64,000 nucleotides of DNA, from NCBI GenBank assembly GCA_963707865.1, contig OY970175.1:758028-822027 (forward strand). The letters run 5' to 3'. Source of the DNA: an uncultured bacterium (GTDB lineage: Bacteria > Patescibacteriota > Minisyncoccia > UBA6257 > 2-01-FULL-56-20). This document shows, piece after piece, positions 10,745 to 26,303 of the stretch. Each line of letters opens with the position of its first letter. The stretch's first letter is position 1. The notes under the pieces were generated by a model. It did not search any database and was not told where the DNA came from. It worked only from the letters and a program-made list of their open reading frames with translations. Both the position numbers and the translations under genes were made by a program.

Positions 10745-10879
10745 ATGTCGTTTACCTACAGTCCTAAAAAGAAAAAAAGGAAAAGGACGCACGGATTTTT
10801 GCGGCGGCAACGGGTACCGGGCGGCCGGCGCGTTCTCGCACGGCGCAGAGCGAAAGGGAGGCGGCGGATCAGCGTCTAA
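10745..10879 (+). CDS. rpmH: 50S ribosomal protein L34. The ORF track buries it inside longer overlapping ORFs.
   Basis: [44 protein letters not shown], 44 aa, canonical L34. Confidence 0.9.
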
Positions 10880-10884
10880 TAGCG

Positions 10885-11217
10885 ATGCTTTCCAAATTAT
10901 CACGGTTGCCGAGCCGGGATTTTAGGGCGGGGCGGTGGGGAGTGGCATCAACGCCATACTTTGTATTGAAAATGAAACCGGGCATACAAGAGAAAATCAG
11001 GATTGGAGTTGTCGCGGGTGCCTCTGTGCACAAGAACGCCGCGAAGAGGAATTTTTGGAAGCGGCAGGCGAAAACAGCGCTCCTCGCGGCCGGCAGCGCG
11101 GGCACCGATTTCCTTGTTGTCCTCACTCCCAGAGTCAACACGCTCACTAAAAAGCAATTTAAGGAACTTTTGTTCCAGGCCCTCCTTCCCCACACAAAAA
11201 ACGATCACCGACAATGA
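10885..11217 (+). CDS. rnpA: RNase P protein component
   Basis: LSRLPSRDFRAGRWGV..YFVL and VVAGASVHKNAAKRNFWKRQAKTAL resemble RnpA core motifs. Position is immediately after rpmH. Confidence 0.8.
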   Translation: MLSKLSRLPSRDFRAGRWGVASTPYFVLKMKPGIQEKIRIGVVAGASVHKNAAKRNFWKRQAKTALLAAGSAGTDFLVVLTPRVNTLTKKQFKELLFQALLPHTKNDHRQ

Positions 11218-11933
11218 GCTACCTCTACCAAGCCATTCTTTACCGGCCCATTCTTAATCTTCTCGTTTATTTTTATGAAACGATCTCGTTCCGCGACCTT
11301 GGGATCGCTATAATATTCGTCACCATTCTCATCCGCCTGGTGCTGTATCCATTATTCCATAAAGGTGCCAAACAGCAGATGCTGATGCAGCGCATCCAGC
11401 CGAAAATTAAAAAAATCCAGGAGTTGCACAAAAACGACAAAGAAAAGCAGGCGCAGGCGCTGATGGGACTCTACAAGGAGCACGGGGTAAGTCCCTTCTC
11501 GAGTATCGTTCTTCTCGTCATTCAGTTGCCGATCATGATTGCTCTCTACTGGGTGGTGCGTTCTGCGCTCACGCCTGGAGAGCTCACAGGGTTGTATTCT
11601 TTTGTGGCGGTGCCGCAGGCCATCAACCCACTCTTCCTCGGTGCCATCAACCTCGCGGCCCCGAGCATCATCCTCATCCTCCTCGCCGCACTCGCCCAGT
11701 ACTTACAGGCGCGGCTTGCTATCTATCGGGACCCCGGGAGCAATGCGCCGCTTTCCTCCGCAGAGAAGATGGCGCGGCAAATGGTTTTCATCGGGCCCCT
11801 CGTCACCATTTTTATTTTTTACAGCTTGCCCGCCGCCGTCGGCCTCTACTGGCTCGTCACGTCACTCTTCTCGGTAGGACAGCAATTAATCATCAATAAG
11901 CATTTCAAAAAAGGAGAAACCGCGGCGGTATAA
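11214..11933 (+). CDS. yidC: Membrane protein insertase YidC (short form)
   Basis: Polytopic protein; ATGA overlap with rnpA; canonical rpmH-rnpA-yidC-jag order. Confidence 0.85.
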   Translation: MSYLYQAILYRPILNLLVYFYETISFRDLGIAIIFVTILIRLVLYPLFHKGAKQQMLMQRIQPKIKKIQELHKNDKEKQAQALMGLYKEHGVSPFSSIVLLVIQLPIMIALYWVVRSALTPGELTGLYSFVAVPQAINPLFLGAINLAAPSIILILLAALAQYLQARLAIYRDPGSNAPLSSAEKMARQMVFIGPLVTIFIFYSLPAAVGLYWLVTSLFSVGQQLIINKHFKKGETAAV

Positions 11934-12006
11934 CAAGATGTCCGCAGACGCCGAGCTCCCTTCCGCGGCTTGATTTTGGTGCGAGAGTATGGAATAGTAC
12001 CTTGAA

Positions 12007-12441
12007 ATGGAGAGTTGGGAAACGATTACCAAAAATATCGTGGAGGCAATGGGATTCCGCGATTATCGGTTGGAAATAAAACCAGAGGAAAAGCACGGCT
12101 CGCTTTTCATCTACGACGGTGGGAATCTTCTTAAAGAAAATCTCGCCGCCATCGTAGAGAGCGTGAACCATCTTTTTCAAATGATTGCAAAGAAGAATCA
12201 GATTGACCTCTTCTTTCTCGACGTGAACAGTTACCGGCAGGAGCGCGAGAACTTGATCGCCGAGCTTGCGCGCGCGGCGGCGAAGAAAGCGGTCGCGACG
12301 AAAAACGCGGTGCCGCTCCCCGCGATGAACTCGTATGAACGGAGAATCGTGCACGCGGAACTCGCGTTGCATCCCGAGGTGAAGACCGAGAGTTCGGGAG
12401 AAGGCAAAGAGCGCTATGTGGTTATAAAGCCGCTTTCGTAG
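12007..12441 (+). CDS. jag: Jag/KhpB-like R3H-domain RNA-binding protein
   Basis: R3H motif PMNSYERRIVH; follows yidC. Confidence 0.75.
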   Translation: MESWETITKNIVEAMGFRDYRLEIKPEEKHGSLFIYDGGNLLKENLAAIVESVNHLFQMIAKKNQIDLFFLDVNSYRQERENLIAELARAAAKKAVATKNAVPLPAMNSYERRIVHAELALHPEVKTESSGEGKERYVVIKPLS

Positions 12442-12451
12442 GGGTTCTGGT

Positions 12452-13687
12452 CTATTGCGTGGCGGTGGAGGTGCCGAGTGAGCGCGCGTAGAGTTTTTGA
12501 TCGTAGCGGTTGACGAAGAAGAGGATATTATTGAAAAACTTTACATTCGAAACGTCTAAGTTCTGCGATACGCTAGTAAGGACAGCGCCAACGCTCCCGT
12601 CAGACAAGTTCACTCGGTAAAGATCGTCGAGGGTCATGAACATTCTTTCCTCGTACGCGTCCGGCAATGAGTTGTTTTTGAGTTTCGTGGCATCACGAGG
12701 GACTCCGCAGAAAAGGGCCAAGGTCGATGATGCGCTCGCCACTGTGGTCGTGGTGAGCGTGGTTCCCGCGCTCGTTGCAAACGCGCACTTTGAGGGCAGC
12801 GTGAGGAAGCTCATCCGATGGACAAGATTGCCATCGTTATCAATGATCCCTAATTGCCCTCCGCGCGCAAGGTCTGTCCCTGCAAGGATGAGCCCAAGCG
12901 TCCCATTATTGTTCCACTGGGATTCAAGGCCAACCCGGTTGGCGACGATCTTTGAGAGCGCGCCCGTTTTCGCATTAACACTGAATATAGATCCAGAAAA
13001 CAGGGCACTGCTCTTATCAAAGAGGAAGATGCTGCCAGGAGACCGCCAGAGAACTTGAAAATCTGTGGCAGGAAAAGAAATGAGGAATTTTGGGCTGGCG
13101 TGAGGGTCGGAGGTGTCTATGGTTTCAAGCGAGCTTACGTCGTTTGTTTGGGCGAGATACGCAATTTGATAATTGGAAGGAGACCACGCCGCGGCAGTCG
13201 GGTTTGCTGAGAGAGGACTCCACGCTTTTTTAGTAATGTCAAAAACGCTCCACTGGAGGGCGGTCGGGTTGCCAAAGCCCACAAGGATCCGCTTGCCGTC
13301 GTAGGAAAAATCAGCAGAGACGACATTGGGTATTTCGGTGGAGTTCAAATAGGTCGACTGGTCGTTCGCGATTTGTTCGATTTTGCCATCGGGTTCCACG
13401 GTAATTACGGTATTGCTCGCGTCGACAAAGTAATTAAGCACGGGTTCGTTTGAAACGATACCGAAGCTGGCGATAGCTGTGGGTGACTGATTGGCGTTTC
13501 CTGTGGGGAGACCCGTTTGCCCAACCGTATTATTTGTGTTGGCTTGCGTTCCTGTCTGCGGAAGGGTGCCGGAAGACCCTTGCGGCAGCACCGTTTGTGT
13601 TTGATTGCGCGAAACGAGCCAAAGGGCCACAAGCCCGGCGATGATAGCCACGATAACTCCAACAATGATGTACCGGTAACGCCTCAT
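12452..13687 (-). CDS. Membrane-anchored protein with a Thr/Asn/Gln-rich linker and a beta-propeller-like C-terminal region (last gene of the T4SS-like operon)
   Basis: N-terminal transmembrane helix IIVGVIVAIIAGLVALWLV; 1-nt gap to the upstream gene. Confidence 0.55.
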   Translation of the reverse strand: MRRYRYIIVGVIVAIIAGLVALWLVSRNQTQTVLPQGSSGTLPQTGTQANTNNTVGQTGLPTGNANQSPTAIASFGIVSNEPVLNYFVDASNTVITVEPDGKIEQIANDQSTYLNSTEIPNVVSADFSYDGKRILVGFGNPTALQWSVFDITKKAWSPLSANPTAAAWSPSNYQIAYLAQTNDVSSLETIDTSDPHASPKFLISFPATDFQVLWRSPGSIFLFDKSSALFSGSIFSVNAKTGALSKIVANRVGLESQWNNNGTLGLILAGTDLARGGQLGIIDNDGNLVHRMSFLTLPSKCAFATSAGTTLTTTTVASASSTLALFCGVPRDATKLKNNSLPDAYEERMFMTLDDLYRVNLSDGSVGAVLTSVSQNLDVSNVKFFNNILFFVNRYDQKLYARSLGTSTATQ

Positions 13688-13688
13688 C

Positions 13689-14063
13689 TTACGGTTTAGT
13701 TAGTGGAAGGTTAAGATTTACGATATTCGGGTTCACTGTGTGGAGGATGATATATGCGCCGGCGAGAAGCAGGAGCCCAAGAAGCGCGTTCGTGACCCAA
13801 CCTTTTCCTTCGCTTTCGGCCGAGGGGTTGCCGCGACTCACCGCGTACTTGATGCCGCCATAGACAATCGCACCGAACGCAAGAATTCCCGCGACGAGAA
13901 GGGCGAAGCTGTAAAAACCTGACACAAACCCCGTCGTGCCTGTGCCGCTCGTCACGCCCGGGAGGTTGGTATTAATTTGAATGGTTACTGCGACTGCGCG
14001 GCGGATTGCGGTGGGGAGAAGCACTGCGGCGGCGGCGATACCAAAAGTCGTTTTTTTCATCAT
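13689..14063 (-). CDS. VirB2/TrbC-like pilin candidate
   Basis: 124 aa: cleavable signal peptide, then two hydrophobic helices separated by a short polar loop (SRGNPSAESEGKG), the VirB2 topology. Confidence 0.5.
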   Translation of the reverse strand: MMKKTTFGIAAAAVLLPTAIRRAVAVTIQINTNLPGVTSGTGTTGFVSGFYSFALLVAGILAFGAIVYGGIKYAVSRGNPSAESEGKGWVTNALLGLLLLAGAYIILHTVNPNIVNLNLPLTKP

Positions 14064-14752
14064 GATTTTTGGTAGGTGAGGACGGTGTTGGCGGTTGCCG
14101 TGGTTGAGTCGGATGGGTTCACGACAACGAGGTTTATGGAGATGGTTGTCCCCGGAGTAGTGCTCTCGCTTATAGCGAGAGTCGCCTCTTCCGGATTTTC
14201 CGCGGACTGCGTCGGTACTCCGTTCGCCGACCAGGCGTAAGTCAGCGCGGACGGGCCGGAAACATTAAAGAAGTAGGGCAGGGCTTTGATGTCTGCCGAG
14301 GACGAGGCGATTATGCCGCCCGGATAATCCGCCTCAATAGCGACCTTCGGGGCTACGACGGGAACTTGTATGTCCGCGACAAAAGGATTGCCGTTTGCGT
14401 CCTCCACTCTTGCCTGCAAGTCGGTGACCTGTTCGGTTGCCTGCGGCGCCGCGAACGATATTCTCTGAAGACCTTGTCCGGATTGGAGAAGCTCACCATC
14501 GGCATACCAGTAGATTGTGTAATCGGAAATATCCACTGGGACACCGTCGTTCAAAAGCATAACCCACGCCGTGACATTTGAACCTCCCGTGGGAAGTTGC
14601 TTCCCGTGGAATCCGGGCGGGACATATGTGTCGGTTGACCAGTCAATGATAGTTCCGGTAAGCGACGGCAACGCCGCTCGCGCCTGAATACTGAACATCG
14701 CGGCAAGGGCAATCGCCGCACCTACTACACAACTAGCTTTCATAATCCGCAT
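14060..14752 (-). CDS. Secreted protein with a signal peptide (Ig-like beta-rich), T4SS-like operon member
   Basis: Signal peptide MRIMKASCVVGAAIALAAMFSIQARA; ATGA overlap with the downstream gene. Confidence 0.55.
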   Translation of the reverse strand: MRIMKASCVVGAAIALAAMFSIQARAALPSLTGTIIDWSTDTYVPPGFHGKQLPTGGSNVTAWVMLLNDGVPVDISDYTIYWYADGELLQSGQGLQRISFAAPQATEQVTDLQARVEDANGNPFVADIQVPVVAPKVAIEADYPGGIIASSSADIKALPYFFNVSGPSALTYAWSANGVPTQSAENPEEATLAISESTTPGTTISINLVVVNPSDSTTATANTVLTYQKS

Positions 14753-14788
14753 TGCTTCAATTATACCAAATGGCGCCTCGGCGCGCCG

Positions 14789-15661
14789 CTACGCTGCCTC
14801 CGGGTTGTCGGTTTCTTCTTCTTGAGGACTTTCTTCTGCTTGGGCCGCCTGCGCCTCTTTTGCTTCTTCAGCAAGAGCTTGGATCTCTTCCGCCGAGGAC
14901 GGGAAGTATTTCTTCAGAGCTGCTTCCTCCGGCGGGACCATTGCAGGTGCCGCCTCTTCCTCAATTTTCTTATACTCTTCCTCTGCCCCCACCCTCTCAC
15001 CGGCTTCTTCCCCCGCCATTCCTGCCTCTCCAGTGGGCGCTTCTTCGCCAGTCGGGGGGGCACCTCCCGATTCCGGTGCTGTGGGTCCTTCCGCGCCGGG
15101 CGGTCCTGCGGCACCGCCTTCGGAGACGCCAGTTTGTGCCGAGGGCGCGCCACCTGCGGCTCCGGCCGGTGCTCCTTCTGCGGCGGCCCCTGCCCCCCCT
15201 GCGGCTACCCCCTTTGTCGCTGCACCTTCTACTGCCGCCCCCTCCGCCGCGGCCCCGCCGAGGGCACCGCCTTCGCCTCCTTCTAGTGCACCCCCCACCT
15301 TCTCAGCAACTTCTTCAACCACGGGGGTCCGGTCAATGATTATCGTGACAACCCAGGCAACGAGTGGGGTCGGAAGTGCCTGGACAATCGGGAACATCCC
15401 GGCGGCATAACCGACGATATTAGTAGCGACAACATTAGTCCCCCTCAATCCTTTCATGTAAAGGTAAAAAAACATCAATCCGCCGGCGACAGGCGCCGTA
15501 ATATCACCGACGACCGGGATAAGGTTGATGACGCACACCACAACAAGGCCGCTTCCAATAAGAAGTCCCTCGGTAAGCGTGATTTTCGGCTGGGACCGCG
15601 CCGCACCTCCGCCCGCGGGAGGCGCAGCCCCTGATTTTGGTTGTGGCGCCGCCTCGGCCAT
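14789..15661 (-). CDS. Membrane protein with a long Ala/Gly/Glu-rich disordered C-terminal tail
   Basis: Two to three transmembrane helices in the N-terminal half; start overlaps the stop of the upstream VirB4 ATPase ORF by 1 nt (ATGA). Confidence 0.55.
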   Translation of the reverse strand: MAEAAPQPKSGAAPPAGGGAARSQPKITLTEGLLIGSGLVVVCVINLIPVVGDITAPVAGGLMFFYLYMKGLRGTNVVATNIVGYAAGMFPIVQALPTPLVAWVVTIIIDRTPVVEEVAEKVGGALEGGEGGALGGAAAEGAAVEGAATKGVAAGGAGAAAEGAPAGAAGGAPSAQTGVSEGGAAGPPGAEGPTAPESGGAPPTGEEAPTGEAGMAGEEAGERVGAEEEYKKIEEEAAPAMVPPEEAALKKYFPSSAEEIQALAEEAKEAQAAQAEESPQEEETDNPEAA

Positions 15662-17400
15662 TACAGTTCTTTTTTCTCCTCCAGTAGCTGCTCCGGATTG
15701 GTGGTGATAATCTGGTCTTCAAAGTACGACGGCACAATCTGAATCGCGACATGGCGCTTGCCGGCGAAGAAAATTCCCGTGCCCACCTCTGCGCTCAAAA
15801 GGAAGTTTTTTTCCGCGTCCGTAAGGTCAAACGCCTTTGCTACGATATCAATCGTCGCCGGCGCCTGCTTTAAAAGCATCTGGAGAGATGAGTTCGTGAT
15901 AATGGGGCGCCCGTAGGGAGAGCGCAGGAAATCCTCCACGTCTTGCGTGATCGTGGAAACGCCAAGGAAATATTTCCGTGCGCGTTTCACAAGGCCGAAA
16001 AGGAACGTGGCCGAGTCGTCGTTCTTCATCATGATCCATGCCTCGTCAATGAAGAGCAGCCGCTTCGCGAGTTTCGCGCGGATCAGGCTCCAGATGTAGT
16101 TCAGAACGACGAACATCCCGATGGGGCGCAGCTCTTCCTCAAGGTCGCGGATGGAGAAGACGATGAGGCGGTTATTGACGTCAATGTTGGTCGGTTGGTT
16201 CAGGAGCCCCGCGAAGCTTCCTTCGGTGTATTTATAGAGTTTCTCCGACATGCCCCTACCCCCCTCAAGGTTGCGAAGAATGGTGGCGAGATCTCCCAAG
16301 AGTGGCGGTTCTTTTCCCGCGAAATCCAATCCGACGACGATTTCGCGCGAGGCGTAGGTTTCCGTGATCGCGCGGTCAAGGATAGCGTCCTCTTCGGGGG
16401 TGATCTTCCCCAACATAAGTTTGATCAGGCCCGCGAGCGTCACGATGTGCGACCGGAGGACGTCAGACGGCGTTTCGCCCTCGGGGATGAGCGGGAGGTC
16501 AAACGGGTTGATGTGCTCGTGCGCCGAGAGCGAAATATTGAACATGCTGCCGCCGAAGGTCTCGGCGAGCCGCTGATATTCGTTCTCCGGGTCAATCACG
16601 ATCACCATGTCCACGCCCGCCATGAGCGAGCGGATGATCTCCAGCTTCGTAGTGTACGACTTGCCGGAGCCGGACTTTGCGAAAACCACTTGGTTCGCGT
16701 TCTCCAGAGAAAAGCGGTCAAAGATCACAAGGTTACTGTTGTGCAGGTTGATGCCGTACATGATTCCCCGATTTGAGGAAAGGTCCTCCGAAACGAACGG
16801 GAAAAAAGAGGAAATCGGGCTTGTGTTCATCGGCGTATATATCTGCAATTTGTCCTCGTTGAGCGGAAGGACCGAGAAAAGCCCTTCCAGCTGTTCAAAA
16901 AGCGCCGGCTTCAGATAGATGAGTTTCGCCTCCATCATGTTTGTGAGCTTGCTCTCCAATCGCGCGAGGTCGTCGGCGTTGTCGGCGTAGATCGTGATGT
17001 AGACGCCGGTGTCAAAAAGCTTTTCCTGCGATTCTTGGAGGGAATCGCGCAGCCCCTCCACGTCTTTGATGGCGGTCTCCAGCATCGGATTCCGCACGAG
17101 GCCCTTATCCTCCTCGTCATTCAGCTGCGACTCCAGCTGGCCGGCCTTCTTGCGGAGATTTTTGAGCGCCGTGCCCGTATCAATCGGATTTACAAAAATG
17201 GAAATGTCAAAAAGGTTGGGGAGGTTGATAAGCGGCTCAAACCAGCCGGTCGCAAGATAGCGGGGGTATGAAAGTATAAAAAAGGTCTTCGCAACCTTGT
17301 CGCCGATTTTGAGGTAGCTGGGGAACACCTGCGCTCCCGCCGGCGCGATGATCTGTTTTATGTCTTTGAGTTGGCCGCGATTCTCGGGCATATTGTTCAT
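15661..17400 (-). CDS. virB4: VirB4/TrbE-family T4SS ATPase, ATPase (C-terminal) portion
   Basis: Walker A VFAKSGSGKSY; Walker B LLFIDEAW (the IDEAW hallmark of VirB4/TraE). Confidence 0.75.
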   Translation of the reverse strand: MNNMPENRGQLKDIKQIIAPAGAQVFPSYLKIGDKVAKTFFILSYPRYLATGWFEPLINLPNLFDISIFVNPIDTGTALKNLRKKAGQLESQLNDEEDKGLVRNPMLETAIKDVEGLRDSLQESQEKLFDTGVYITIYADNADDLARLESKLTNMMEAKLIYLKPALFEQLEGLFSVLPLNEDKLQIYTPMNTSPISSFFPFVSEDLSSNRGIMYGINLHNSNLVIFDRFSLENANQVVFAKSGSGKSYTTKLEIIRSLMAGVDMVIVIDPENEYQRLAETFGGSMFNISLSAHEHINPFDLPLIPEGETPSDVLRSHIVTLAGLIKLMLGKITPEEDAILDRAITETYASREIVVGLDFAGKEPPLLGDLATILRNLEGGRGMSEKLYKYTEGSFAGLLNQPTNIDVNNRLIVFSIRDLEEELRPIGMFVVLNYIWSLIRAKLAKRLLFIDEAWIMMKNDDSATFLFGLVKRARKYFLGVSTITQDVEDFLRSPYGRPIITNSSLQMLLKQAPATIDIVAKAFDLTDAEKNFLLSAEVGTGIFFAGKRHVAIQIVPSYFEDQIITTNPEQLLEEKKEL

Positions 17401-18074
17401 GTTGCTTCCTTCGGCAAGGCCATATCCTTTCGTTCAATGGTCTGAGGATTGTAGAAGTTGTAGAAAAGTTCCGCGAGCGCTTCGTCGTTCAAGATGGTCG
17501 CGTCAAGCCCCATGCCGAGAAGCCCTGTCGTGATCTGACTCGTGCGTTGGATGAGCTGCGCCAGATTTTCCTGGAAGATGCGCTCGGTCTCGGACGCATC
17601 CTTTGTCTCCGTTTCCTTGTTCTGTTTCTTCTTGAGGAACGGGAGAAATCCGGTGGCTTTTTTTGTTGACATGATACTCATTGGATAAAAAGGAACGACC
17701 ACAAGAAACGTCTTTTCCATGATCGCGTTCTTTTCCACGAATCCCTTTATGAATTGAACGTATTCGTCAATTTGACTCCGGAGCAGCGCGGTTTGTTCCG
17801 CTTCCTTCCGCGTGAGGAGCCCTTGTATGTATTTGTCAATGTTCACCTTCCGCGAATGCACCACGATCTGTAGCGGGAAATCAATACCGTTCAAAAAGTT
17901 CTGGTACCCTCCCGTGAGGAGATTTTGTTCGGATTCCGACTTGAGTGCGAAGTTCACGCCGCCCACAAGGACAACTTGCCGCATACTGCCGCCCTTAAGA
18001 ATGGCTGTGTTATTCCTGATCTCCTCGATGCTTACAAGGTCAAGGGAATTGCCAAAATCCTGTTTTGATGCCAT
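17397..18074 (-). CDS. VirB4 N-terminal domain encoded as a separate ORF (split VirB4)
   Basis: IEEIRNNTAILKGGSMRQVVLVGGVNFALKSESEQNLLTGGYQNFLNGIDFPLQIVV resembles the conserved N-terminus of Gram-positive VirB4-like ATPases. Stop and start overlap as ATGA. 225 + 579 = 804 aa, about full VirB4 length. Confidence 0.5.
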   Translation of the reverse strand: MASKQDFGNSLDLVSIEEIRNNTAILKGGSMRQVVLVGGVNFALKSESEQNLLTGGYQNFLNGIDFPLQIVVHSRKVNIDKYIQGLLTRKEAEQTALLRSQIDEYVQFIKGFVEKNAIMEKTFLVVVPFYPMSIMSTKKATGFLPFLKKKQNKETETKDASETERIFQENLAQLIQRTSQITTGLLGMGLDATILNDEALAELFYNFYNPQTIERKDMALPKEAT

Positions 18075-18096
18075 TGTTTATATTTTCTCATCATTA

Positions 18097-18633
18097 TCAG
18101 CGGTAGTCCACTCTCCGCGCCGCTTCGCGGTCGCCGGCGAGCTTTCGGAAAATCTCGTAATGGCCGCTCACTTTTTGTTCTTTGAGCTTCTTCGGCCCCC
18201 CCTTTGCTTTCTGGGGCTCCCTTGTCTTCGTTTTTACACCCACCTGGACATTTTCCCAGCTCTTATGGAGCGCCATACCCATGGCAATCTTCTCAAGAAC
18301 GCTGCTTTTAATCGGCTTCGCTTCCGGGGGCGCCTTATGCTTTTGTACTGCCGGATGTTCCGGCTGCCACACGTACGTTTGCGGGTTCCAGTAAAAGGAG
18401 AATGCCGAGAGGATGATTTTCGGAAGCGGCCTCCCTTCAATTTTTACGAACGAGATCGCAATGGCGCCGCCCACAAGGAAGAACGAAAGAAAAGCCCATA
18501 GCCACGTCTGGAGTATGAAATAAAGCAAGGCGGAGATGCCCGCGCCGATGCCGATGTAAACGAACTGTCGGAGCGACAAGGGCCCTACGATCTTATCCTC
18601 TGTATCTATAAATTGTGGGACCTGGAATTGCAT
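18097..18633 (-). CDS. PrgI-family (VirB3-like) small T4SS membrane protein
   Basis: VPQFIDTEDKIVGPLSLRQFVYIGIGAGI followed by two transmembrane helices. Confidence 0.55.
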   Translation of the reverse strand: MQFQVPQFIDTEDKIVGPLSLRQFVYIGIGAGISALLYFILQTWLWAFLSFFLVGGAIAISFVKIEGRPLPKIILSAFSFYWNPQTYVWQPEHPAVQKHKAPPEAKPIKSSVLEKIAMGMALHKSWENVQVGVKTKTREPQKAKGGPKKLKEQKVSGHYEIFRKLAGDREAARRVDYR

Positions 18634-18717
18634 TCACTATATTATAGCCCAAGTGTGCAGCTAAAGCCCCGGCAGGAGCCGGGGCTTCCTTCATCCGCCA
18701 TCCGCCACGGCTATCAA

Positions 18718-19920
18718 TTATTTTTTTGGTGGCGGAGGCGGTGGTGCCGGTGGAGTGGATGGAGTCGGAAATTTCGGCGGCATAGGGAGTTCCAGTGCAA
18801 CCGGTTCGGGAGGAAGCGCCTTCAGTGGCGCGGGAGGCACAGACGGGACAGCGGTAAGCTCGGTTATTTTTCTTTGCGCCGCGGGGTTTGGAAACGTGGG
18901 ATTTTCCGTCAAGGGCGGTTTGTATTCCGTGTAGTGGACAACGCGCGGCGTTGAGGTAGCCATTTTTGGCGCGGGCAGCGGAGGCACCTTGCCGAGTTCA
19001 ACCACTGCGGGTCTTATCGGTAGCGACGCGGGCCCTTTTTGCATAGCAAATTTTTCCGAAGGAAGATCAAGGTGAAAATCCGGCGCCCGCTGTTGTGGCT
19101 TGGCCGAAACGTCTTCGTGGAGAATCATCGGCGGGGGTCCTGGAGGCGGCGTGGGCGGCTTCGGAATGCCAGCGGGCGGAGCAGCAGGCGCAATTCCTTC
19201 GCTGCGTTTCATTGCGAGCCGCTCAAATTCCCCGATGGGCCCCCGCGCCGGCGGTATCGTAATTGGAGCAGAAGGCGCGGGTGCCGCTGGTGCTCTCGGT
19301 GCCACCGGTGCTGCTGATGCGGTTTGGTCCAATTTCACCACCGGCTGTTTGAGCGTCGCCCGCGACCAACCCGCCGCTTCGGGCATTTTCGGTTGTGTAG
19401 CATTTTGAGGAGGCGGCGGTGTTGTTGAAGACGGAACCTCAGAAATTATTTTCGGCCCGGTCGGTGCGCTGGCTACAGCGGAAAGAGTGGCGGAGATTGT
19501 TTTTGACGGCGTGGCAGTCGATTTTGCTGGCACCACCGCCGTTTTTGATCCTGGGGGTTTAATATCCCCCGTGGTCACCGCAATGGGCTGATAGTTACTT
19601 TCGAGCTCGCTTTTTATCTGCGCGAAAATCTTTGTGTTTAGTTCATCCGCTAGGGAACTAGAAAATTGTGGATTGTTTAAAGATAGTGCTTCGTTGATTT
19701 CCGATCCTATATCGTAGTAATGTAAAACACCAAGGATAACCAAGCCAGCAATCTGCTGGATTGTAGTTCTCTTGTCTTCATCTACAATCCGGTTTCTGTC
19801 ACAGACCTGATTAATAATCCTGAGGTTGCGCTCAGCGGTCAAGGCCTCTTTTAATTGGTCAGGGAGGGAGTCGAATCGCTTATCGAGTTCTTCCTCCGTG
19901 ATGGAGGCAACAGGAATCAT
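18718..19920 (-). CDS. Proline-rich protein (C-terminal poly-Pro, ends PPAPPPPPPKK), hypothetical T4SS-like component
   Basis: Composition; same strand and operon context. Confidence 0.45.
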   Translation of the reverse strand: MIPVASITEEELDKRFDSLPDQLKEALTAERNLRIINQVCDRNRIVDEDKRTTIQQIAGLVILGVLHYYDIGSEINEALSLNNPQFSSSLADELNTKIFAQIKSELESNYQPIAVTTGDIKPPGSKTAVVPAKSTATPSKTISATLSAVASAPTGPKIISEVPSSTTPPPPQNATQPKMPEAAGWSRATLKQPVVKLDQTASAAPVAPRAPAAPAPSAPITIPPARGPIGEFERLAMKRSEGIAPAAPPAGIPKPPTPPPGPPPMILHEDVSAKPQQRAPDFHLDLPSEKFAMQKGPASLPIRPAVVELGKVPPLPAPKMATSTPRVVHYTEYKPPLTENPTFPNPAAQRKITELTAVPSVPPAPLKALPPEPVALELPMPPKFPTPSTPPAPPPPPPKK

Positions 19921-19933
19921 CCCTGATATTATA

Positions 19934-20605
19934 TCACCTTCCCCGCTTTTTAATGCGATAGGTTCTTACGGTCCCGGTAAACTTCCCTTTTTCATTGTAG
20001 ATGCCGACCGACCTGAAATAGTAATCTCTAAAATTACCCCTTTTCTCATAAGCTCTTTTCATTAACATGTAGTCGGGGTACGAGACCCTAGGATTTTCCC
20101 CTACGTATTCCGCCTCCCCATTTTCCACTAACTTATCATATTTATCCTGATTTTTTCGTGCCCGATCTGGGTTCTCGTGGAATCTCAACGGTTGGAGAAA
20201 ATTGCCTATCTTCTGATATGCCTTTTCGCCGCCGCCAAGAATCCTTTCGGTAAATCTATCCCACCCCGTGAGGAGCTCCTCCTGCTCCTTCCAAAATGGA
20301 TTTGGATGGTCTGAGTCGGGACCACGTTGGTTTTCTCGGGATTGCGACTCACTCATCGCATTCACTTCTTCGCGCATTTTGGCCAGACTTGCTTCGCGAT
20401 CCGCCTCGCGCCTACTCTTTTCCCTTGCTCTTTCAGCGGTGCTCAATTCTCCGGAAGAGACCTTCTTCTCCGGGCTCTCCGCACCACCTAACGAACGCTG
20501 GCGGACCTCAATGGCTTTGGCTTGCTCAAATGCTGCGTCAGACGTATCGGTTATGATTCTAGGGTTTTCTTCCTCTGGATTCTGAGTAACATCTGGTGTT
20601 TCCAT
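19934..20605 (-). CDS. Highly charged hypothetical protein
   Basis: ORF within the operon; no recognisable motif. Confidence 0.4.
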   Translation of the reverse strand: METPDVTQNPEEENPRIITDTSDAAFEQAKAIEVRQRSLGGAESPEKKVSSGELSTAERAREKSRREADREASLAKMREEVNAMSESQSRENQRGPDSDHPNPFWKEQEELLTGWDRFTERILGGGEKAYQKIGNFLQPLRFHENPDRARKNQDKYDKLVENGEAEYVGENPRVSYPDYMLMKRAYEKRGNFRDYYFRSVGIYNEKGKFTGTVRTYRIKKRGR

Positions 20606-20621
20606 TGTATTGCATAAAGTA

Positions 20622-22157
20622 CTACACCTGCGTCCAATTTGCCGTGGCCGCCAGGCTATGGCATGTCGGGCATGGAATAATTGGTTTCTTTCTCGATGGC
20701 ATTATGTACTTACAAACTTGGCATTCCCAGTTATTAACCGTGGATTTAAATAACCCTGATCCACTTTTTACTCCGCCCCAAACACTTGCGGCGAGCCCTT
20801 TTGTTTTGAGGTTAGGACTGGTTGCGGTTTGTTGCAGGCGCGTTGCCATCTGCCCTCGCCATCTATTAATTCTGGTTAGTGGCGTATACAGACGGCCCCC
20901 AGGACCTACTCTTGGCTTCGGTTGCATGATACGAGATGCAAGATTTAAAGACCCTCGTGCCCCGTGTTTCATTGTATACGTGCCAAATGCTTTCGCTCCA
21001 CTCTTCACCGCGCCTATCGCGGCCCCTGCGCCCATGATGCTCATCTTCTCCGCCGCGATCATGCCGCCGACCATGAGGCCGACTACCAGGATAACTTGAA
21101 GGGCGCTGCCAATGATTGTGTTTATAGCCGACCCAAAGATATCAGAGATCGCCTTTGCTATCGCATTTCCAGTTCCCGCCTGATACCCTAAGCCCTGGAG
21201 ACTGGCTGCTGGGTCGGTGCTGTTAGTCGTATTTGTGTTCATTTGGCCGGCGACCGCTACAGAGAGATAAACAAAGAACATGACGATCGGCGCAAAGAAG
21301 GTCCACTTTATGAATTTGTCCCACCAATCTTCAAAATGTTTGCTGGTTTTTGGGAAAATCCACAGGAGCCATGCGAGCGGCATCAGAATGAGAAGGATGC
21401 TCAAGTATATGTATCGTATGAGAAGCATAAAAAGGAAAACGCAGAGCACGATGACGGTGGTAATAAGCATTGCGGCGACAAAAAGCGCCGAAAAGATAGG
21501 TTTCAGGATGTCAGCAATTGCCTTACCGAGAGCCGAGGTGCCCGTCTCGGCCTTGGCGTTGGAGGTATTAAGGAAGCCCTCAAGTGAAAACTTATGTGGC
21601 CCGAACGCTCCCGTGAGGGATTTCGCGAAGTTGTTGTATGCGGCGACGCCCTGACCGCCGCCCGGCAGCGCTTGCATGAAGGTAAGGGTGAGCTGATTAG
21701 CGAAATTGATGATCACGCCGCCGATCACCAAGCTGAAATTGACCAGAATCGCCGCCACGACGAGCTTCCAGAGAGTTTTTTTGATGCCGTAGGTTTCGCG
21801 GTGGAGGATGGTCGCAATGGCAATAATGATGATGCCGAGGACGAATCCGAGATTTGCCACAGAGAGGGTTACGGCGAACCCGCTCTGCACGGCATTCGAC
21901 ATTACGACATTGGCATTCAGCTGGAGGATGATTGTGATGAAGTAAACGATGAGTGCGATAACGTTGTTCAGGAGCCACGTAACAATGAACACGATGAGAT
22001 ACACGCCCCACGCTATGAAGTTTCCTATCAGATCGGTCAGTGCTGCGGGGCCACCAAAAATACTCCATGCATGAGCCTGGTATGGGATGGCGACGAAAGG
22101 AATGGCAAGCAAGAGGGCTGCCACCAGGATCAGTTTGTATTTATCGGAGGATTTCAT
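20622..22157 (-). CDS. VirB6/TrbL-like polytopic membrane protein with a C-terminal Cys4 zinc-ribbon-like tail
   Basis: Signal peptide followed by at least eight transmembrane helices; C-terminal CQVC..(15)..CPTC. Confidence 0.5.
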   Translation of the reverse strand: MKSSDKYKLILVAALLLAIPFVAIPYQAHAWSIFGGPAALTDLIGNFIAWGVYLIVFIVTWLLNNVIALIVYFITIILQLNANVVMSNAVQSGFAVTLSVANLGFVLGIIIIAIATILHRETYGIKKTLWKLVVAAILVNFSLVIGGVIINFANQLTLTFMQALPGGGQGVAAYNNFAKSLTGAFGPHKFSLEGFLNTSNAKAETGTSALGKAIADILKPIFSALFVAAMLITTVIVLCVFLFMLLIRYIYLSILLILMPLAWLLWIFPKTSKHFEDWWDKFIKWTFFAPIVMFFVYLSVAVAGQMNTNTTNSTDPAASLQGLGYQAGTGNAIAKAISDIFGSAINTIIGSALQVILVVGLMVGGMIAAEKMSIMGAGAAIGAVKSGAKAFGTYTMKHGARGSLNLASRIMQPKPRVGPGGRLYTPLTRINRWRGQMATRLQQTATSPNLKTKGLAASVWGGVKSGSGLFKSTVNNWECQVCKYIMPSRKKPIIPCPTCHSLAATANWTQV

Positions 22158-22160
22158 TCG

Positions 22161-24278
22161 TTAGTAAAAGTTAAGGATGCTGTTGAGCTTGTTGATGATA
22201 TTTATCACCGAATTCACCTTACCCACGACGGAGGCTATCTCGGCGTTTATCTTGTTAATTTCGGCCGTCATGCTGTTGCAGGGGCCCGGATTAGACAGTC
22301 CCGTACAGACATCTTGGATTGTGATAGGGTTACCACTCCCGAGTTTAAGAGTAAGATTGTAGAGTCCCTGTGCCTTCCCTTTCATGAGTTGGACACCCAT
22401 AGCATCCGTTATCGCCCTATTTAATTGTGTAAGGTCATTCGCGCTCGCCACTTGGCCATAGGCGGAGTTCGCGGAAGCCGCGACTTGCGAAGCGCCGACA
22501 CTCCCCGGCGTGACAATTTGTTGTTTCGTGCAGATTTTATTGCCATTTGAATCCGTGTAGGATGTGAGGCATTGCGCGGTTGATTTATACCCTTGATTCG
22601 CGACACTCTCGGCCTGCGCGGCCGTTGCGGCGCTTTGGGCCGATGAATCTATCGCGTCGTGGGAAACGGCTATGGTGCCAAAAAGATTGTTGGTCGGGTC
22701 GCTAGTGAGCGAGTAATAGTCAGACCATGCGTTCGGATCGGAGCTGAAGTCGTTATAAAAGCCCTGCATGTCCGATATTTGATTCTTTATGCCACATCCG
22801 GCTCCGGTACCGTTCACGGTGGGGCTACCAAAAACAGGACCCGGCCCGCCACCTGCGCTGTCACTAAGTAAGATGTCCCCTGCGGTTTGCCCCGTTGGTC
22901 CCGCCGCAGTGTCCGGATTAAAAACGGTAGTTTTTACATCCGATACGAATTCGGGGCATATTTGCGCCGAAACATCCTTGTATGCAGCCGTTGCGCCTCT
23001 TGTGGCCGCATCGCCGTAGAACGTGGTGTAGTCCTGGATGAATCGTGGATCGCCTTTGTTTTGGATGTAATCCAGCGTTACCGAATCCAGGGTCTTAACC
23101 GCCGCATTCTTCGCGCTTTCGGTACTGATTTTTCTGTTGCACTCATAAACGAGAAGCGTCAAAATATCCAAGCTGCTCTGCGACGAAATGCTTTCCATCC
23201 CCTGTGTTTGGTTGACCATTGATTCAAGACTGGCGTCGGTGACAGGCACTGAGGTAAGGCCGGAAAGAAGATTCGCGACACTGAGGATCCCGCTCGTGAG
23301 TCCCAGGTCGGTAAGGATTTTTGTCGCGGCGTCCGAGTCAAGAGTGCACTTGCCGGTGGTTTGGTCAATGGAAAAACCGACTTGGGCAAACGCGGTGTTT
23401 ATCTGGAAAAGATTTTTAAAGAGCGCGCTGATTTCGCCGAGGCCGCCTTCTTCTGGTTTGGTTGATTGCGAGAGAAGTTTGGCGGGGTCAAGCGCTTGGT
23501 AGGCCTTCGCCATGGCGAGGATGTCGTCGGCAACGTGGCTGGTCACCTCAACTTCGCCGTTAAGCACGATCGTGGCCTTCAAGGGGTCAACCGATTGGTT
23601 TTGTATCGCCATTGAAAGGTTCCTTTCATCTTCTAAGTAGTTCACGAAGCTTTTTTCAAAAGGGACGAATACTGCGGGAGTTTCAAGATTCTTTAGGCCC
23701 AGTGCGGCCGCGCCCAAGGTTGTGGCGATGTCGCCGCTCGCGCCCGCGTTTGCGGATTGTGAGAGACCCGAGAGAAATGTGGGGCTGCTTATCGTCGCGC
23801 GCATAACGGTTTTAAATCCTTCATTGAAACGGTTGTTGGCTGCGGTACCGCTTGCAGTGGTCATGTTGAGATCGCCGTCCTGCACGTTGCTCCAGAGATC
23901 GGAGATTTGGAAATCGGGGGCACTTGCGATAAGGTAGGTATTAAGGGCGCTGCTCGTCGGCAATACAAGCCCGACTTGCCCGTTGAAATCGCGCGGCCCT
24001 TCAGGGTTGAGTGAAGTGATTACGTCCGCAAGGTTTTGGGCAGTGGCCTGCGTGAGGTTCGTGTCGTTTCCCGAAAGATTTTCCCGGAGCGCTATAGGAA
24101 GGTCTTCCGAGGCGAGAACGAAGGCGTTTTGCGGCATCGGGGTGGTACGTGAATCGCTGCGCGACGTGACCGCGCCGCCGCTTCCGTTGAAATGGGGGTT
24201 AGGGAGGGACAGAGCGACAACGCTCGCAATGATCGCGAGGATCAGGAAAGCAACCATTAGCCTCTTGACGTCTACCAT
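22161..24278 (-). CDS. Large secreted protein (705 aa), first gene of the T4SS-like operon; putative surface or adhesin component
   Basis: N-terminal signal/anchor MVDVKRLMVAFLILAIIASVVALS; a TATAAT-like -10 at 24287-24292 sits immediately upstream (possible leaderless start). Confidence 0.55.
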   Translation of the reverse strand: MVDVKRLMVAFLILAIIASVVALSLPNPHFNGSGGAVTSRSDSRTTPMPQNAFVLASEDLPIALRENLSGNDTNLTQATAQNLADVITSLNPEGPRDFNGQVGLVLPTSSALNTYLIASAPDFQISDLWSNVQDGDLNMTTASGTAANNRFNEGFKTVMRATISSPTFLSGLSQSANAGASGDIATTLGAAALGLKNLETPAVFVPFEKSFVNYLEDERNLSMAIQNQSVDPLKATIVLNGEVEVTSHVADDILAMAKAYQALDPAKLLSQSTKPEEGGLGEISALFKNLFQINTAFAQVGFSIDQTTGKCTLDSDAATKILTDLGLTSGILSVANLLSGLTSVPVTDASLESMVNQTQGMESISSQSSLDILTLLVYECNRKISTESAKNAAVKTLDSVTLDYIQNKGDPRFIQDYTTFYGDAATRGATAAYKDVSAQICPEFVSDVKTTVFNPDTAAGPTGQTAGDILLSDSAGGGPGPVFGSPTVNGTGAGCGIKNQISDMQGFYNDFSSDPNAWSDYYSLTSDPTNNLFGTIAVSHDAIDSSAQSAATAAQAESVANQGYKSTAQCLTSYTDSNGNKICTKQQIVTPGSVGASQVAASANSAYGQVASANDLTQLNRAITDAMGVQLMKGKAQGLYNLTLKLGSGNPITIQDVCTGLSNPGPCNSMTAEINKINAEIASVVGKVNSVINIINKLNSILNFY

Positions 24279-24320
24279 TTATCTACATTATAACGCAGTG
24301 CAGGGCACAAGTTATTTTGG

Positions 24321-25112
24321 TTATCCCCAATGAGCCGCAACTCCCGCGATGTCTTTTATGGAAAGGTTCTGCGGACGGGCTTCGGGATTGATTTTAATCT
24401 CCCGGAGCAGCGCCAACGAGTTTTCCTTTCCCATGTGGGCGGCCAAATTATTGAGCACCGTTTTCCGCGGTTGGGCAAAAAGGGCTCGTATTGCGGGGAA
24501 ATAGCGCGCGGCATCAATAGGCGGCATAGATCTCGCTTCCAATATCACAAGGGCGGAATCCACTTTGGGCGGGGGGTTAAAATTTTGCTTGGAAATGATG
24601 CTCACAATTGCGGGATCAGCCCAGTATTGGACGCTCGCGGCGAGGCGATTCATCTTGGGCGGCTTCGCGACAATTCGTTCTGCGACTTCCTTTTGAACCA
24701 TAATCACGGAGCGCGTGGGCTTGTTTTTGAGCTCGCCGATCATGCGCAGGAGGCGCCCTGTAATATAATAGGGAAGGTTGCCGACCAGTTTGAAGGGCCG
24801 CTCATTGAGCGCCAAGGAACCGTGGGGCGACGCGAGATATGCAAGGATGTCGCCCGCGACAATGTCCACCCTGTTCTTATCTTTTGGCAAAGCCGCGATC
24901 CTCAGCCCCAATTCTTTTGCGAGCGCCTCGTCTTTCTCAACGGCGACGAGATGATATTGCGATCCTTCGCCCACGAGCGCGAGCGGTATTGTAAGCTCGC
25001 CGTGCCCAGATCCGACTTCAAGAACAAAATCATCGCGTACAAGACGGAGCGCGGCGATGATCTTGTTTGTTACCGACCTGTTCTTTAGAAAATGTTGGCC
25101 GAGTTTTCGCAT
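24321..25112 (-). CDS. rsmA: 16S rRNA (adenine1518/1519-N6)-dimethyltransferase
   Basis: MRKLGQHFLKNRSVTNKII..VLEVGSGHGELT KsgA motifs. Confidence 0.9.
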   Translation of the reverse strand: MRKLGQHFLKNRSVTNKIIAALRLVRDDFVLEVGSGHGELTIPLALVGEGSQYHLVAVEKDEALAKELGLRIAALPKDKNRVDIVAGDILAYLASPHGSLALNERPFKLVGNLPYYITGRLLRMIGELKNKPTRSVIMVQKEVAERIVAKPPKMNRLAASVQYWADPAIVSIISKQNFNPPPKVDSALVILEARSMPPIDAARYFPAIRALFAQPRKTVLNNLAAHMGKENSLALLREIKINPEARPQNLSIKDIAGVAAHWG

Positions 25113-25142
25113 TGCTTGTTAGTTGATATAATAATAACGTAA

Positions 25143-26303
25143 ATGAACCGTTCAAGAACTATTCTTCTCCTTGTGATATCCGGGGTGGTGGTAACGAGCA
25201 TTGTGGCAATCGCCCTCTTAAGAGCGATTCAGTTGAAAAACGGAGCAGGGAGCGCCATTCAGAACCAAGCGGTTTCGCAGCCAGCCCAAACTTCTTCGCT
25301 CCCGGCGAGCGGCTTTCTGCCCGGCGGAAGCGTAGCGCTTAACGGGCAATCGTCGGCCGCAAGCAGCGAGCCCCCAATTGTGAACGGGAAGCCGGTGACG
25401 TCATTGAATGATGTAGCGCAAATTATTGCCGCGTCTTCGTCGGCTTCCTCAACGGTGGCGGCCACTCACGTGGAGTTGCTTCCTTTACCGGATGTGCCGG
25501 ACGGCGCGATCGCCATTGATCCTTCAGGGGCGGCGACCAGAGTTGAATACCTTGAGTATTTCAACGTCCACGCCGGCGACATTCCTTTTGATAAGAATAA
25601 ATTCAACGCAGTTATGAAGGACAAAAATGGGGTGGTTCTTTTTACACAAGATCTTATTGACAAAGCGCTCGGCGACGGCGATTTTCAAGAGGTCGGAAAC
25701 TCGTTGCTTGTCCAAAAAGAGTTCGCCGAGGCAGAGATCGTTTTTTTGAAGTCAATCAAGGTAACGGGAGACGCAATCGCCTTGGATAAGAAAACCATCG
25801 GCGTTGAAGAACTCCTCGTAGACCTTATTGATAAGAGCTTTGCCGTTGCATCAGGCAGTCTCGCAAAAAATGACTTCGTCGCATTCTACCATCAGTTTAT
25901 GGTGACCGTGGGGAGCGAGCGTCGGCAGTTAGTCGCGCGGTCTCTGATGTTCCACCTATCTTCAGATGATGGTTGGTTGACGCACGCGTTTCAGGTTTTC
26001 GGCACAACCGTTCAGGCTCAGGCCGTGAGCACTCCATTTGGCGGAGAGATCAGCGTCCCCATTCCTTGTCCGTGCAGCGCGGGGGTTTGGATAGTGGTGG
26101 GACCTCCCTTCCCGGCCTCAATATTCGTTCCATTCGCCTTCATGGCAACCCCTCTTTTCTACAACTATAAGTCGTCGGTTCCAGGAGCGTGGTGGCTAGG
26201 TCTTTATAGCATCGAGGCGCAGATACCCTGTCTGAGCGGGGCGGCCTGCGCTCCTATAGGCAGTGGTGGGCTGATTATCATGGCGGGAACAAGCAGCCTG
26301 TAG
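25143..26303 (+). CDS. Hypothetical membrane-anchored or secreted protein with a Cys-containing hydrophobic C-terminus
   Basis: N-terminal transmembrane helix, Ser/Ala-rich linker, C-terminal PIPCPCS motif. Confidence 0.5.
   Translation: MNRSRTILLLVISGVVVTSIVAIALLRAIQLKNGAGSAIQNQAVSQPAQTSSLPASGFLPGGSVALNGQSSAASSEPPIVNGKPVTSLNDVAQIIAASSSASSTVAATHVELLPLPDVPDGAIAIDPSGAATRVEYLEYFNVHAGDIPFDKNKFNAVMKDKNGVVLFTQDLIDKALGDGDFQEVGNSLLVQKEFAEAEIVFLKSIKVTGDAIALDKKTIGVEELLVDLIDKSFAVASGSLAKNDFVAFYHQFMVTVGSERRQLVARSLMFHLSSDDGWLTHAFQVFGTTVQAQAVSTPFGGEISVPIPCPCSAGVWIVVGPPFPASIFVPFAFMATPLFYNYKSSVPGAWWLGLYSIEAQIPCLSGAACAPIGSGGLIIMAGTSSL

Follow-up and report, generated by a model that had tools for sequence, protein, structure and literature searches.

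The 64-kb stretch of contig OY970175.1 analysed here (hereafter the window) carries, at positions 12452-24278, a cluster of eleven genes, G1 to G11, that very probably encodes a chromosomal, origin-proximal type IV secretion system (T4SS) of the Patescibacteria, here in a Paceibacteria/Minisyncoccia genome of ~0.9 Mb. The system would derive from the mating-pair-formation (MPF) class MPF-FATA, would not be a mobile element, and would serve host attachment or macromolecule exchange. A preliminary description of this DNA had proposed a non-conjugative T4SS-like apparatus of an episymbiotic bacterium from the Candidate Phyla Radiation (CPR), and that proposal agrees with the T4SSs published for Patescibacteria. 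Such a system is thought to be central to host exploitation by ultrasmall episymbiotic bacteria.

The eleven open reading frames (ORFs) all lie on the minus strand and span the cluster exactly, in full agreement with the coordinates given earlier. From G1 to G11, the junctions measure 3, 16, 13, 84, 22, -4 (ATGA), -1 (TAATG), 36, -4 (ATGA) and 1 nucleotides (nt). The spacers of 0 to 36 nt or ATGA overlaps that had been reported hold for every junction except that between G4 and G5, which at 84 nt is the largest intergenic gap inside the cluster.

Core motor: VirB4, a TrsD-like protein and PrgI/VirB3

By its profile matches and motifs, G7 (17400-15661; 579 amino acids, aa) is a VirB4 ATPase and comprises the C-terminal motor domain. 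It matched NCBIfam NF045971, the equivalog of the VirB4-like CD1110 family, with an E value of 4.8e-114 and 382 bits (cut-off, 325) and PF19044 with 6.8e-27 and 94.6 bits (cut-off, 25.8). The Walker A and Walker B motifs read AKSGSGKS and LLFIDE, respectively, and identity to the nearest relatives was 86-96%. All 160 of the closest loci came from Patescibacteria metagenome-assembled genomes (MAGs) or metagenome contigs. This set is consistent with a place of G7 in the monophyletic Patescibacteria VirB4 clade, which is nested in MPF-FATA; a survey of 3,035 genomes of the phylum found VirB4 in 2,417 (Quiñonero-Coronel et al. 2025, Microb Genom, PMC12102498).

The gene upstream, G6 (18074-17397; 225 aa), is judged from its partial matches to be a TrsD-like separate N-terminal domain of VirB4. 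It matched the NCBIfam models VirB4_plasma (1.2e-8, profile positions 103-219), TrsD (8.5e-6) and VirB4_CagE (5.2e-5, positions 20-190), with all scores under the full-length cut-offs, as expected of a fragment. G6 covers only the N-terminal part of the same VirB4 models that G7 enters at position ~185-250; VirB4 is therefore split over two polypeptides, whose genes are joined by an ATGA stop/start overlap. In a scan of species-representative genomes, which yielded 80 related loci, all in Patescibacteria MAGs, G6 was present in 77, and its orthologues carry PF26593 (TraC-like). A separate TrsD beside VirB4 has been described for Patescibacteria (PMC12102498).

G5 (18633-18097; 178 aa), one gene upstream of G6-G7 and present in 74 of the 80 loci, is a membrane protein of the PrgI/VirB3 family, which anchors VirB4. 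It has two transmembrane (TM) segments and matched PF12666 (PrgI) with an E value of 1.3e-10 and 42.1 bits (cut-off, 27), and its 90% cluster bears the name 'PrgI family protein [Minisyncoccia bacterium]'. The VirB4-type ATPase and the PrgI/VirB3-like protein that had been read from the sequence are thus both confirmed by scores above the family cut-offs.

The preliminary description had also considered what would speak for another kind of locus, namely an ATPase of the FtsK or HerA type among membrane neighbours unrelated to VirB3 and VirB6. A generic HerA/FtsK translocase of this sort, with no T4SS around it, would account for the match of the Pfam DUF87/HerA central domain to G7 (1.2e-7) and for the seven proteins that have no direct family match. 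The profile results already refute it, leaving it next to no probability: the VirB4 equivalog exceeded its cut-off at 4.8e-114, G5 and the pilin described below scored over the Pfam cut-offs for PrgI and T4SS_pilin, G6 matched N-terminal regions of VirB4, and orthologues of the neighbouring G2 matched TrbL/VirB6.

VirB6-like protein and VirB2-like pilin

By transitivity through its orthologues, G2 (22157-20622; 511 aa) is likely a VirB6-like polytopic membrane protein. It has seven hydrophobic segments, as the earlier VirB6-like assignment would have it, and five of the 22 positional orthologues matched PF04610 (TrbL/VirB6), the best with 1.1e-6. The direct match of G2 itself was weak (NF046089, CD3337/EF1877 mobilome membrane protein, E 0.0065). 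When the G2 family was compared with VirB6/TrwI/TraD by hhalign, the result was again weak (E 0.0087, probability 4.6%), with a conserved P..IF..T..F..W stretch aligned; the comparison with a single VirB6 was not significant, and the G2-family profile gave only chance-level matches to PDB sequences. G2 is unusually short for a Patescibacteria-clade T4SS, at 511 aa versus 650-850 aa in relatives. Its C-terminal tail contains a zinc-ribbon-like CxxC...CxxC with a weak rubredoxin-like match.

G10 (14063-13689; 124 aa) is, on its family match and predicted topology, a VirB2-like T4SS pilin, in line with its earlier listing as a candidate. It matched PF18895 (T4SS_pilin) with 9.5e-7 and 29.2 bits (cut-off, 26.6) and consists of a leader followed by two hydrophobic helices at residues 53-71 and 89-107. 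No G10 paralogue was found within the window, indicating a single-copy pilin. In many relatives the longest pilin-domain ORFs are 240-540 aa long (for example, L003:13169-13897, L012:13517-14449 and L035:7863-9479; relatives are labelled L plus a number), and these represent either N-terminal fusions or over-called starts.

Proposed function

Established T4SS biology, namely Saccharimonadia genetics together with Gram-negative VirB2/VirB4 biochemistry, suggests how these parts could act together. VirB4, tethered at the membrane by VirB3 and VirB6, would dislocate the VirB2 pilin from the membrane and power its assembly on the VirB6 platform into a conjugative-type pilus or a short conduit. With G1, G9 and G11 spanning or decorating the wall, this structure may pass through it and make contact with the host cell. 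The apparatus would then be used for host attachment, and possibly for macromolecule exchange in episymbiosis, rather than for plasmid transfer.

Several points weigh against this reading. The G2 of the window falls under every VirB6 threshold, which only its orthologues reach, and no VirB8-like or VirB1-like protein was found among the eleven cluster genes. A coupling protein may be encoded elsewhere in the genome, which would reopen DNA or protein export, and the promoter motifs described below are sequence matches only. In addition, we know of no pilus, secretion substrate or host contact observed in any Paceibacteria system.

Concerning VirB8, the NTF2-fold family was not matched by any of the eleven genes. 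G9 was modelled as a candidate, and its Ig/FN3 fold ruled it out as a VirB8 analogue. VirB8 is mostly undetected in Patescibacteria (PMC12102498).

Fixed chromosomal position and absence of conjugation genes

A family search of the window ORFs placed the cluster between jag (R3H), yidC, dnaA and dnaN on one side and ksgA, an ORF of 386 aa, uvrD, a LysM-M23 peptidase gene and comM on the other. The ksgA/rsmA gene (24321-25112) lies 42 nt upstream of G1 on the same strand, so that the co-oriented block amounts to 12 genes. The cumulative GC skew of the window reaches its minimum at ~10-12 kb, which indicates that the cluster abuts the replication origin. The Paceibacteria T4SS cluster has been reported close to dnaA, dnaN, ksgA, rnpA and rpmH (PMC12102498). 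Among the relatives, the order uvrD-ksgA-G1-G2-G4-G5-G6-G7-(G8)-G9-G10-G11-jag-yidC-dnaA-dnaN was also seen in loci that bear the labels Paceibacterota, Liptonbacteria, Harrisonbacteria and Azambacteria. The comparison across related CPR genomes that the preliminary description had proposed thus shows a gene order recurring in MAGs of Paceibacteria and of the three last-named groups.

Profile searches of the eleven cluster proteins and 30 other large ORFs of the 64-kb window detected no relaxase family and no VirD4/TcpA-type coupling protein. No integrase was found among the window ORFs searched, the nearest tRNA lies 16 kb from the cluster, and repeats were at chance level. The sole PF00437 ATPase in the window (2487-4187, minus strand, 566 aa) is of the PilB/MshE type (5.6e-118, plus an MshEN domain) and not a VirB11. 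This ATPase belongs to type IV pilus machinery; its gene is separated from the T4SS cluster by 8 kb, with the origin in between. The reported lack of a relaxase, a coupling protein and VirB11 therefore holds within the window; for the coupling protein it does not extend further, since VirD4 homologues occur in 2,918 Patescibacteria genomes and in only 148 of them near virB4 (PMC12102498), so that the genome may well have one at another site.

Given these figures, the cluster could also be the MPF module of an integrated or decaying conjugative element that still transfers DNA and has its relaxase, coupling protein and oriT beyond the ends of the window. The best families of G7 are indeed conjugative, the CD1110 family of Clostridioides conjugative transposons (CTn) and the VirB4 of Mycoplasma integrative and conjugative elements (ICEs); VirD4 homologues are common in Patescibacteria and usually distant from virB4, and relaxases are present in 103 of 3,035 genomes (PMC12102498). 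We nevertheless consider such an element highly improbable. Dozens of species-level MAGs keep this gene order between ksgA and jag-yidC-dnaA, which points to vertical inheritance at a fixed chromosomal site, which argues against an ICE; the window is without an integrase, att repeats or a flanking tRNA; and ~97% of Patescibacteria genomes are without a relaxase (PMC12102498). Transposon sequencing (Tn-seq) of Southlakia epibionticum found its T4SS, including the pilins, to be essential for epibiotic growth and without a recognisable relaxase or coupling protein (Wang et al. 2023, Cell, PMC10633639), and the t4cp homologue of this species is non-essential, whereas the T4SS is essential.

A further explanation is a DNA-uptake machine like Helicobacter ComB or archaeal Ced, with host DNA as a nucleotide source. 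Like the present cluster, the ComB (H. pylori) and Ced loci are VirB4-based, chromosomal and devoid of a relaxase and a type IV coupling protein (T4CP), and they act in import. G7 also showed weak matches to CedB (2.6e-8) and CedD, a ComM-like gene (29335-30873) and uvrD are nearby, and T4SS genes of the class ABY1 co-localise with comF, recG and radA (PMC12102498). However, the component sets differ, with no ComB-type VirB7, VirB9 or VirB10 present here, and the Ced matches remain far under their cut-offs: CedB reached 33 bits against a cut-off of 700, compared with the 382 bits of the VirB4 CD1110 family. In S. epibionticum, moreover, DNA uptake needs type IV pili and ComEC, and deletion of comEC is viable whereas the T4SS is essential. 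A 2025 review considers a possible pilus conduit and points out that comEC is not required, setting the T4SS apart from DNA uptake. For these reasons DNA uptake, which the preliminary description had offered as a possible role, is not favoured, and we regard it as unlikely.

Host attachment or macromolecule exchange by a chromosomal T4SS is thus the reading that we prefer. Apart from the Saccharibacteria system studied by Tn-seq, we know of no T4SS that its bearer needs in order to grow.

Envelope and accessory proteins

On its predicted structure, G9 (14752-14060; 230 aa; found in 48 of the 80 loci) is a secreted protein of two tandem Ig/FN3-like domains. Its signal peptide ends in ARA. The AlphaFold2 model, built from 23 sequences (predicted local distance difference test score, pLDDT, 89; predicted template modelling score, pTM, 0.76), is all-beta with two beta-sandwiches, and the best Foldseek matches were the SiiE BIg adhesin, RbmA and the CbhA FN3 domain, at E ~1e-6.

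G11 (13687-12452; 411 aa) has an N-terminal TM segment at residues 7-25 and a conserved position in 37 of the 80 loci. A profile of 30 G11 orthologues matched TolB chains in the PDB with 8e-11, and PD40 was detected in four of the 30 (1.6e-10). By these profile matches, G11 is a membrane-anchored TolB/PD40-like beta-propeller, which bears out the propeller-like anchor of the preliminary description.

G4 (19920-18718; 400 aa) consists of a conserved N-terminal domain of ~110 aa, kept at the same position in 25-58 related loci, followed by a proline-rich region of ~290 aa; the protein has 19% Pro and no TM segment. The signal peptide of G9 and the composition of G4 also agree with the secreted or Pro-rich proteins noted previously. 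G8 (15661-14789; 290 aa) has two or more TM segments, at residues 33-51 and 91-109, and a low-complexity tail (21% Ala, 16% Gly, 13% Glu). Its TM part is 61-64% identical to that of L002/L082, and most loci have a gene of about the same size in its place. G3 (20605-19934; 223 aa) is highly charged and soluble, with no TM segment, 13% Glu and 11% Arg. It is a patchy accessory gene, absent from the closest relative, L001. Residues 100-220 of G3 had matches in L004, L092 and L114 only, each time in a separate ORF that follows the VirB6 gene. The idea that G3 is the split-off C-terminus of a longer VirB6 was rejected, as these homologues are separate ORFs.

G3, G4 and G8 had no family match in the Pfam and NCBIfam profile searches. 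The number of proteins without a recognisable family, earlier put at seven of the eleven, thus falls to these three, because G6 is now placed as TrsD/VirB4 N-terminal, G11 as TolB-like and G9 as Ig/FN3, and G1 is a member of a large family in which a DUF4141/VirB5-like motif occurs.

G1 family and its VirB5-like motif

G1 (24278-22161; 705 aa) has one TM segment at residues 7-25, as an N-terminally anchored surface protein, and its gene is always directly upstream of the VirB6-like gene. An exhaustive HMMER search returned 479 G1 cluster representatives at E<=1e-3, the closest with 42% identity. In a word-indexed search, the full G1 alignment returned itself and one weak match and the core returned none, a limitation of the tool given the 479 relatives obtained with HMMER. 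The family is built of an N-terminal anchored domain and a cysteine-containing conserved core (residues ~385-665), and PKD domains occur in eight of 56 members, C-terminally in some.

Between the two halves, nearly all members carry a hydrophobic stretch ending in AxA(Q), followed by (G)[IV]PV[FIT]D or [WF]xxFDP. The mature N-termini of VirB5 (ARAQ-FVVSDP), TrwJ (VMAQ-GIPVFD) and TraC (PSAG-IIVSNP) follow the same pattern. Pfam DUF4141 matched this motif in three of the 56 members, among them P0073 (30.4 bits against a gathering score of 30, residues 300-322) and P0079 (27.4 bits); only one member reached the gathering score, and the match covers only ~25-40 residues, that is, the signal-like segment plus the motif. 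Concatenated G1 cores yielded only linker artefacts against Pfam, which places the DUF4141 match upstream of the core. TrbJ was matched weakly by two of the 56 members (E 0.003). In Bacteroides conjugative transposons, the DUF4141 gene adjoins traJ (VirB6) and traG (VirB4), and TraI of CTnDOT has been reported as a VirB5 homologue.

From this motif and the gene neighbourhood we tentatively suggest that G1 could be a VirB5-like pilus-tip or nucleating subunit. A number of results speak against it. The G1 of the window had no family match, and its motif is broken by an insertion of ~40 residues. Comparison of the G1 family with VirB5 alone and with VirB5, TrwJ and TraC together by hhalign was not significant (probability 0.3-0.5%), the G1-family profile reached only chance level against PDB sequences, and tblastn of the G1 core against plasmids gave no match. 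The AlphaFold2 model of G1 (pLDDT 68.8) has helical domains at residues 120-270 and 400-600; Foldseek found no match to it in the PDB, and the VirB5 fold, a three-helix bundle with an appendage, was not recovered. If G1 were VirB5-like, this would explain how a monoderm T4SS builds a VirB2 pilus.

Probable exchange of envelope modules around the motor

The closest locus, L001 (OY970382.1), is part of a complete 888-kb MAG chromosome, with a VirB4 96% identical to G7; a metagenome scan found no relative closer than 90% VirB4 identity. By blastn, the window aligned with L001 at 5766-12537 (89%), at 15662-19254 (88%; G7, G6, G5 and the C-terminal half of G4) and at 26362-28744 (86%; uvrD). Two intervals did not align. 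The first, cassette A (12538-15661), contains G11, G10, G9 and G8, and the second, cassette B (19255-26361), contains the N-terminal half of G4, G3, G2, G1, ksgA and the 386-aa ORF. The breakpoints are sharp, at the G7/G8 boundary, in the middle of G4 (19254), at the 3' end of G11 and at the 3' end of uvrD.

The protein identities to L001 follow the same division. Among the conserved genes they were 96% for dnaA, 97% for jag, 96% for G7, 93% for G6 and 86% for G5, compared with 42% (G11), 70% (G10), 38% (G9) and 37% (G8) in cassette A and 40% (G2), 26% (G1) and 47% (ksgA) in cassette B, where G3 and the 386-aa ORF have no counterpart in L001. The control pairs L043/L150 and L091/L006, with 90-94% DNA identity, aligned through the entire cluster. 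Since pairs of like divergence align throughout, the pattern argues for allelic replacement and not merely for fast evolution. The nearest alleles of the window's G9, G11, G2 and G1 were found not in L001 but in L094, L161-L163 and L081, whose VirB4 is just 86-90% identical; for cassette A, the nearest alleles (L094/L162/L163) were 54-55% identical. We infer from these alignments that envelope-exposed modules have been exchanged by recombination between lineages while the motor was conserved.

The cassettes could reflect a modular design, with a near-invariant motor (VirB3, TrsD, VirB4) and two exchangeable envelope cassettes. G1 would then be an anchored fusion whose C-terminal half acts as a VirB5-like nucleator or tip adhesin on VirB6, and a swap of cassettes would re-target the pilus to other hosts, comparable to the exchange of receptor-binding modules in phage tails. 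This extended proposal is doubtful. If true, a VirB5 equivalent would be known for the first time from the T4SS of a monoderm, and there would be a genetic mechanism by which CPR episymbionts switch their host range.

Probable transcription units and putative leaderless starts

The motif TATAAT-N7-ATG occurred five times in the window, against 0.23 expected, and the N8 and N6 variants occurred twice and once, respectively (~0.2 expected per spacing). In all eight matches (9159-9173, 14750-14765, 18631-18646, 19918-19933, 24276-24292, 36383-36398, 44070-44086 and 45726-45741), the ATG is the start codon of a long ORF; these ORFs are G9, G5, G4, G1, dnaN, ftsH and two more. Such a short distance of 7-8 nt from a -10 box to the ATG implies a leaderless transcript, and the matches suggest that leaderless mRNAs are widespread in this genome, including those of dnaN and ftsH.

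Four of the sites are located within the cluster, on the minus strand. The N8 motif at the G1 start (24276-24292) was found in strict form at the G1 orthologue start in seven of 15 loci. The N7 motif at the G9 start (14750-14765) recurred at 11 of 92 orthologue starts. The one at the G5 start (18631-18646), within the 84-nt spacer, recurred at eight of 140 G5 orthologue starts, and the motif was present at 18 of 143 G6 orthologue starts. The one at the G4 start (19918-19933) was not conserved in relatives (0 of 58), and the strict motif was found at none of the relatives' G7 (0 of 149) or G2 (0 of 36) starts. Judging from these motifs, the cluster probably falls into several short transcription units (G1-G3, G4, G5-G8 and G9-G11), whose first cistrons would be leaderless and within which the genes would be coupled. 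The single translationally coupled operon of the preliminary description was therefore overstated, given the four internal TATAAT modules and the 84-nt spacer, although the tight packing on which it was based is real.

Comparison with known systems

TrsD, PrgI/VirB3, VirB6 and VirB2-like pilins of PF18895 have been reported near virB4 in Patescibacteria (PMC12102498). The cluster shares with the Patescibacteria-clade T4SS, exemplified by SEML1_0004-0019 of S. epibionticum, a VirB4 with a separate TrsD, PrgI/VirB3, a VirB6-like protein and a PF18895 pilin, the lack of a relaxase and T4CP in the cluster, the chromosomal location by dnaA, dnaN and ksgA, and secreted Ig-like proteins. It differs in having one pilin gene where the array comprises six, in the absence of lysozyme and peptidase genes from the cluster, in the lack of a detected NTF2/VirB8-like protein, and in its Paceibacteria-specific partners, namely the G1 family, the TolB-like G11, the Pro-rich G4, G3 and G8.

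The MPF-FATA systems (Prg/Pcf of pCF10, Trs of pGO1 and the CD1110 family of Clostridioides CTn2) likewise have an NF045971 VirB4, PrgI, a separate TrsD, a VirB6-like protein of the CD3337/EF1877 type (a weak match here) and no outer-membrane core. Unlike the present cluster, they are borne on plasmids or ICEs, possess a relaxase, a T4CP (PcfC/TcpA), a VirB1-like hydrolase and a VirB8-like protein, and have no VirB2-type pilins.

With MPF-T (VirB of A. tumefaciens and Trw of R388) the cluster shares a VirB2-type pilin, with a leader and two helices, and the VirB3-VirB4-VirB6 inner-membrane platform; the motif of the G1 family, AxAQ-(G)[IV]PV[FIT]D, is similar to the N-termini that VirB5, TrwJ and TraC have when mature, and G1 adjoins the VirB6-like gene as virB5 adjoins virB6. 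By contrast, it has no VirB7, VirB9 and VirB10 outer-membrane core, VirB8, VirB11 or VirD4, and G1, which is anchored at its N-terminus, has three times the length of VirB5, with no significant profile or fold comparison. The Bacteroidetes class MPF-B (TraE-TraQ of CTnDOT) has DUF4141 in common with G1-family members, over ~25-40 residues only, and its systems, unlike the present one, are diderm conjugative elements with a relaxase and T4CP.

A pilin-bearing, relaxase-less, origin-proximal T4SS is thus real and not new, its kind having been described since 2020-2025 (PMC10633639, PMC12102498). Only three elements go beyond the surveyed literature: the mosaic of cassettes, the signals of leaderless sub-operons and, in G1, the DUF4141/VirB5-like motif. 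The locus is not a new kind of machine but a clean example from the Paceibacteria, in which the partners specific to the lineage (the TolB-like propeller, the tandem Ig-like protein and the G1 family) are better annotated. It offers two leads, the exchange of envelope modules around a conserved motor and transcription as several leaderless units.

Neighbouring genes and other features of the window

Transcription of the cluster runs toward the origin, head-on to the rightward replication fork, and this orientation is kept in relatives, whereas dnaA/dnaN and yidC/jag are co-directional with their own forks. A connection between the head-on orientation and the fast evolution of the cluster is speculative.

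A LysM-LysM-M23 peptidase gene (28225-29328, plus strand; PF01551 2.3e-27, PF01476 3.7e-24) lies three genes from the cluster, and it is near the cluster in 12 of the 80 related loci. The peptidase is a possible wall-remodelling partner and surrogate for the absent VirB1, its membership in the system being uncertain. VirB1-like proteins containing M23/LysM have been reported with virB4 in Paceibacteria (PMC12102498).

The 386-aa ORF between ksgA and uvrD (25143-26303, plus strand) combines a TM segment at its N-terminus with a hydrophobic C-terminus rich in Cys and is without a family match. Its sole detected homologue, L052:67-1203 (26% identity), is likewise just upstream of a T4SS cluster.

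The remaining 30 large ORFs that were searched in the window are all of the housekeeping kind and include those for RuvB, PBP1, NusA, H+-PPase, TyrRS, FtsH, AdoHcyase, ThyA and SHMT. A terminator scan of the window was at chance level (19 found, 19.7 expected). ARAGORN predicted a tRNA-Ile with the anticodon TAT at 41326-41398 (plus strand); bacteria usually read AUA by a lysidine-modified CAT tRNA, and the TAT anticodon is uncommon.

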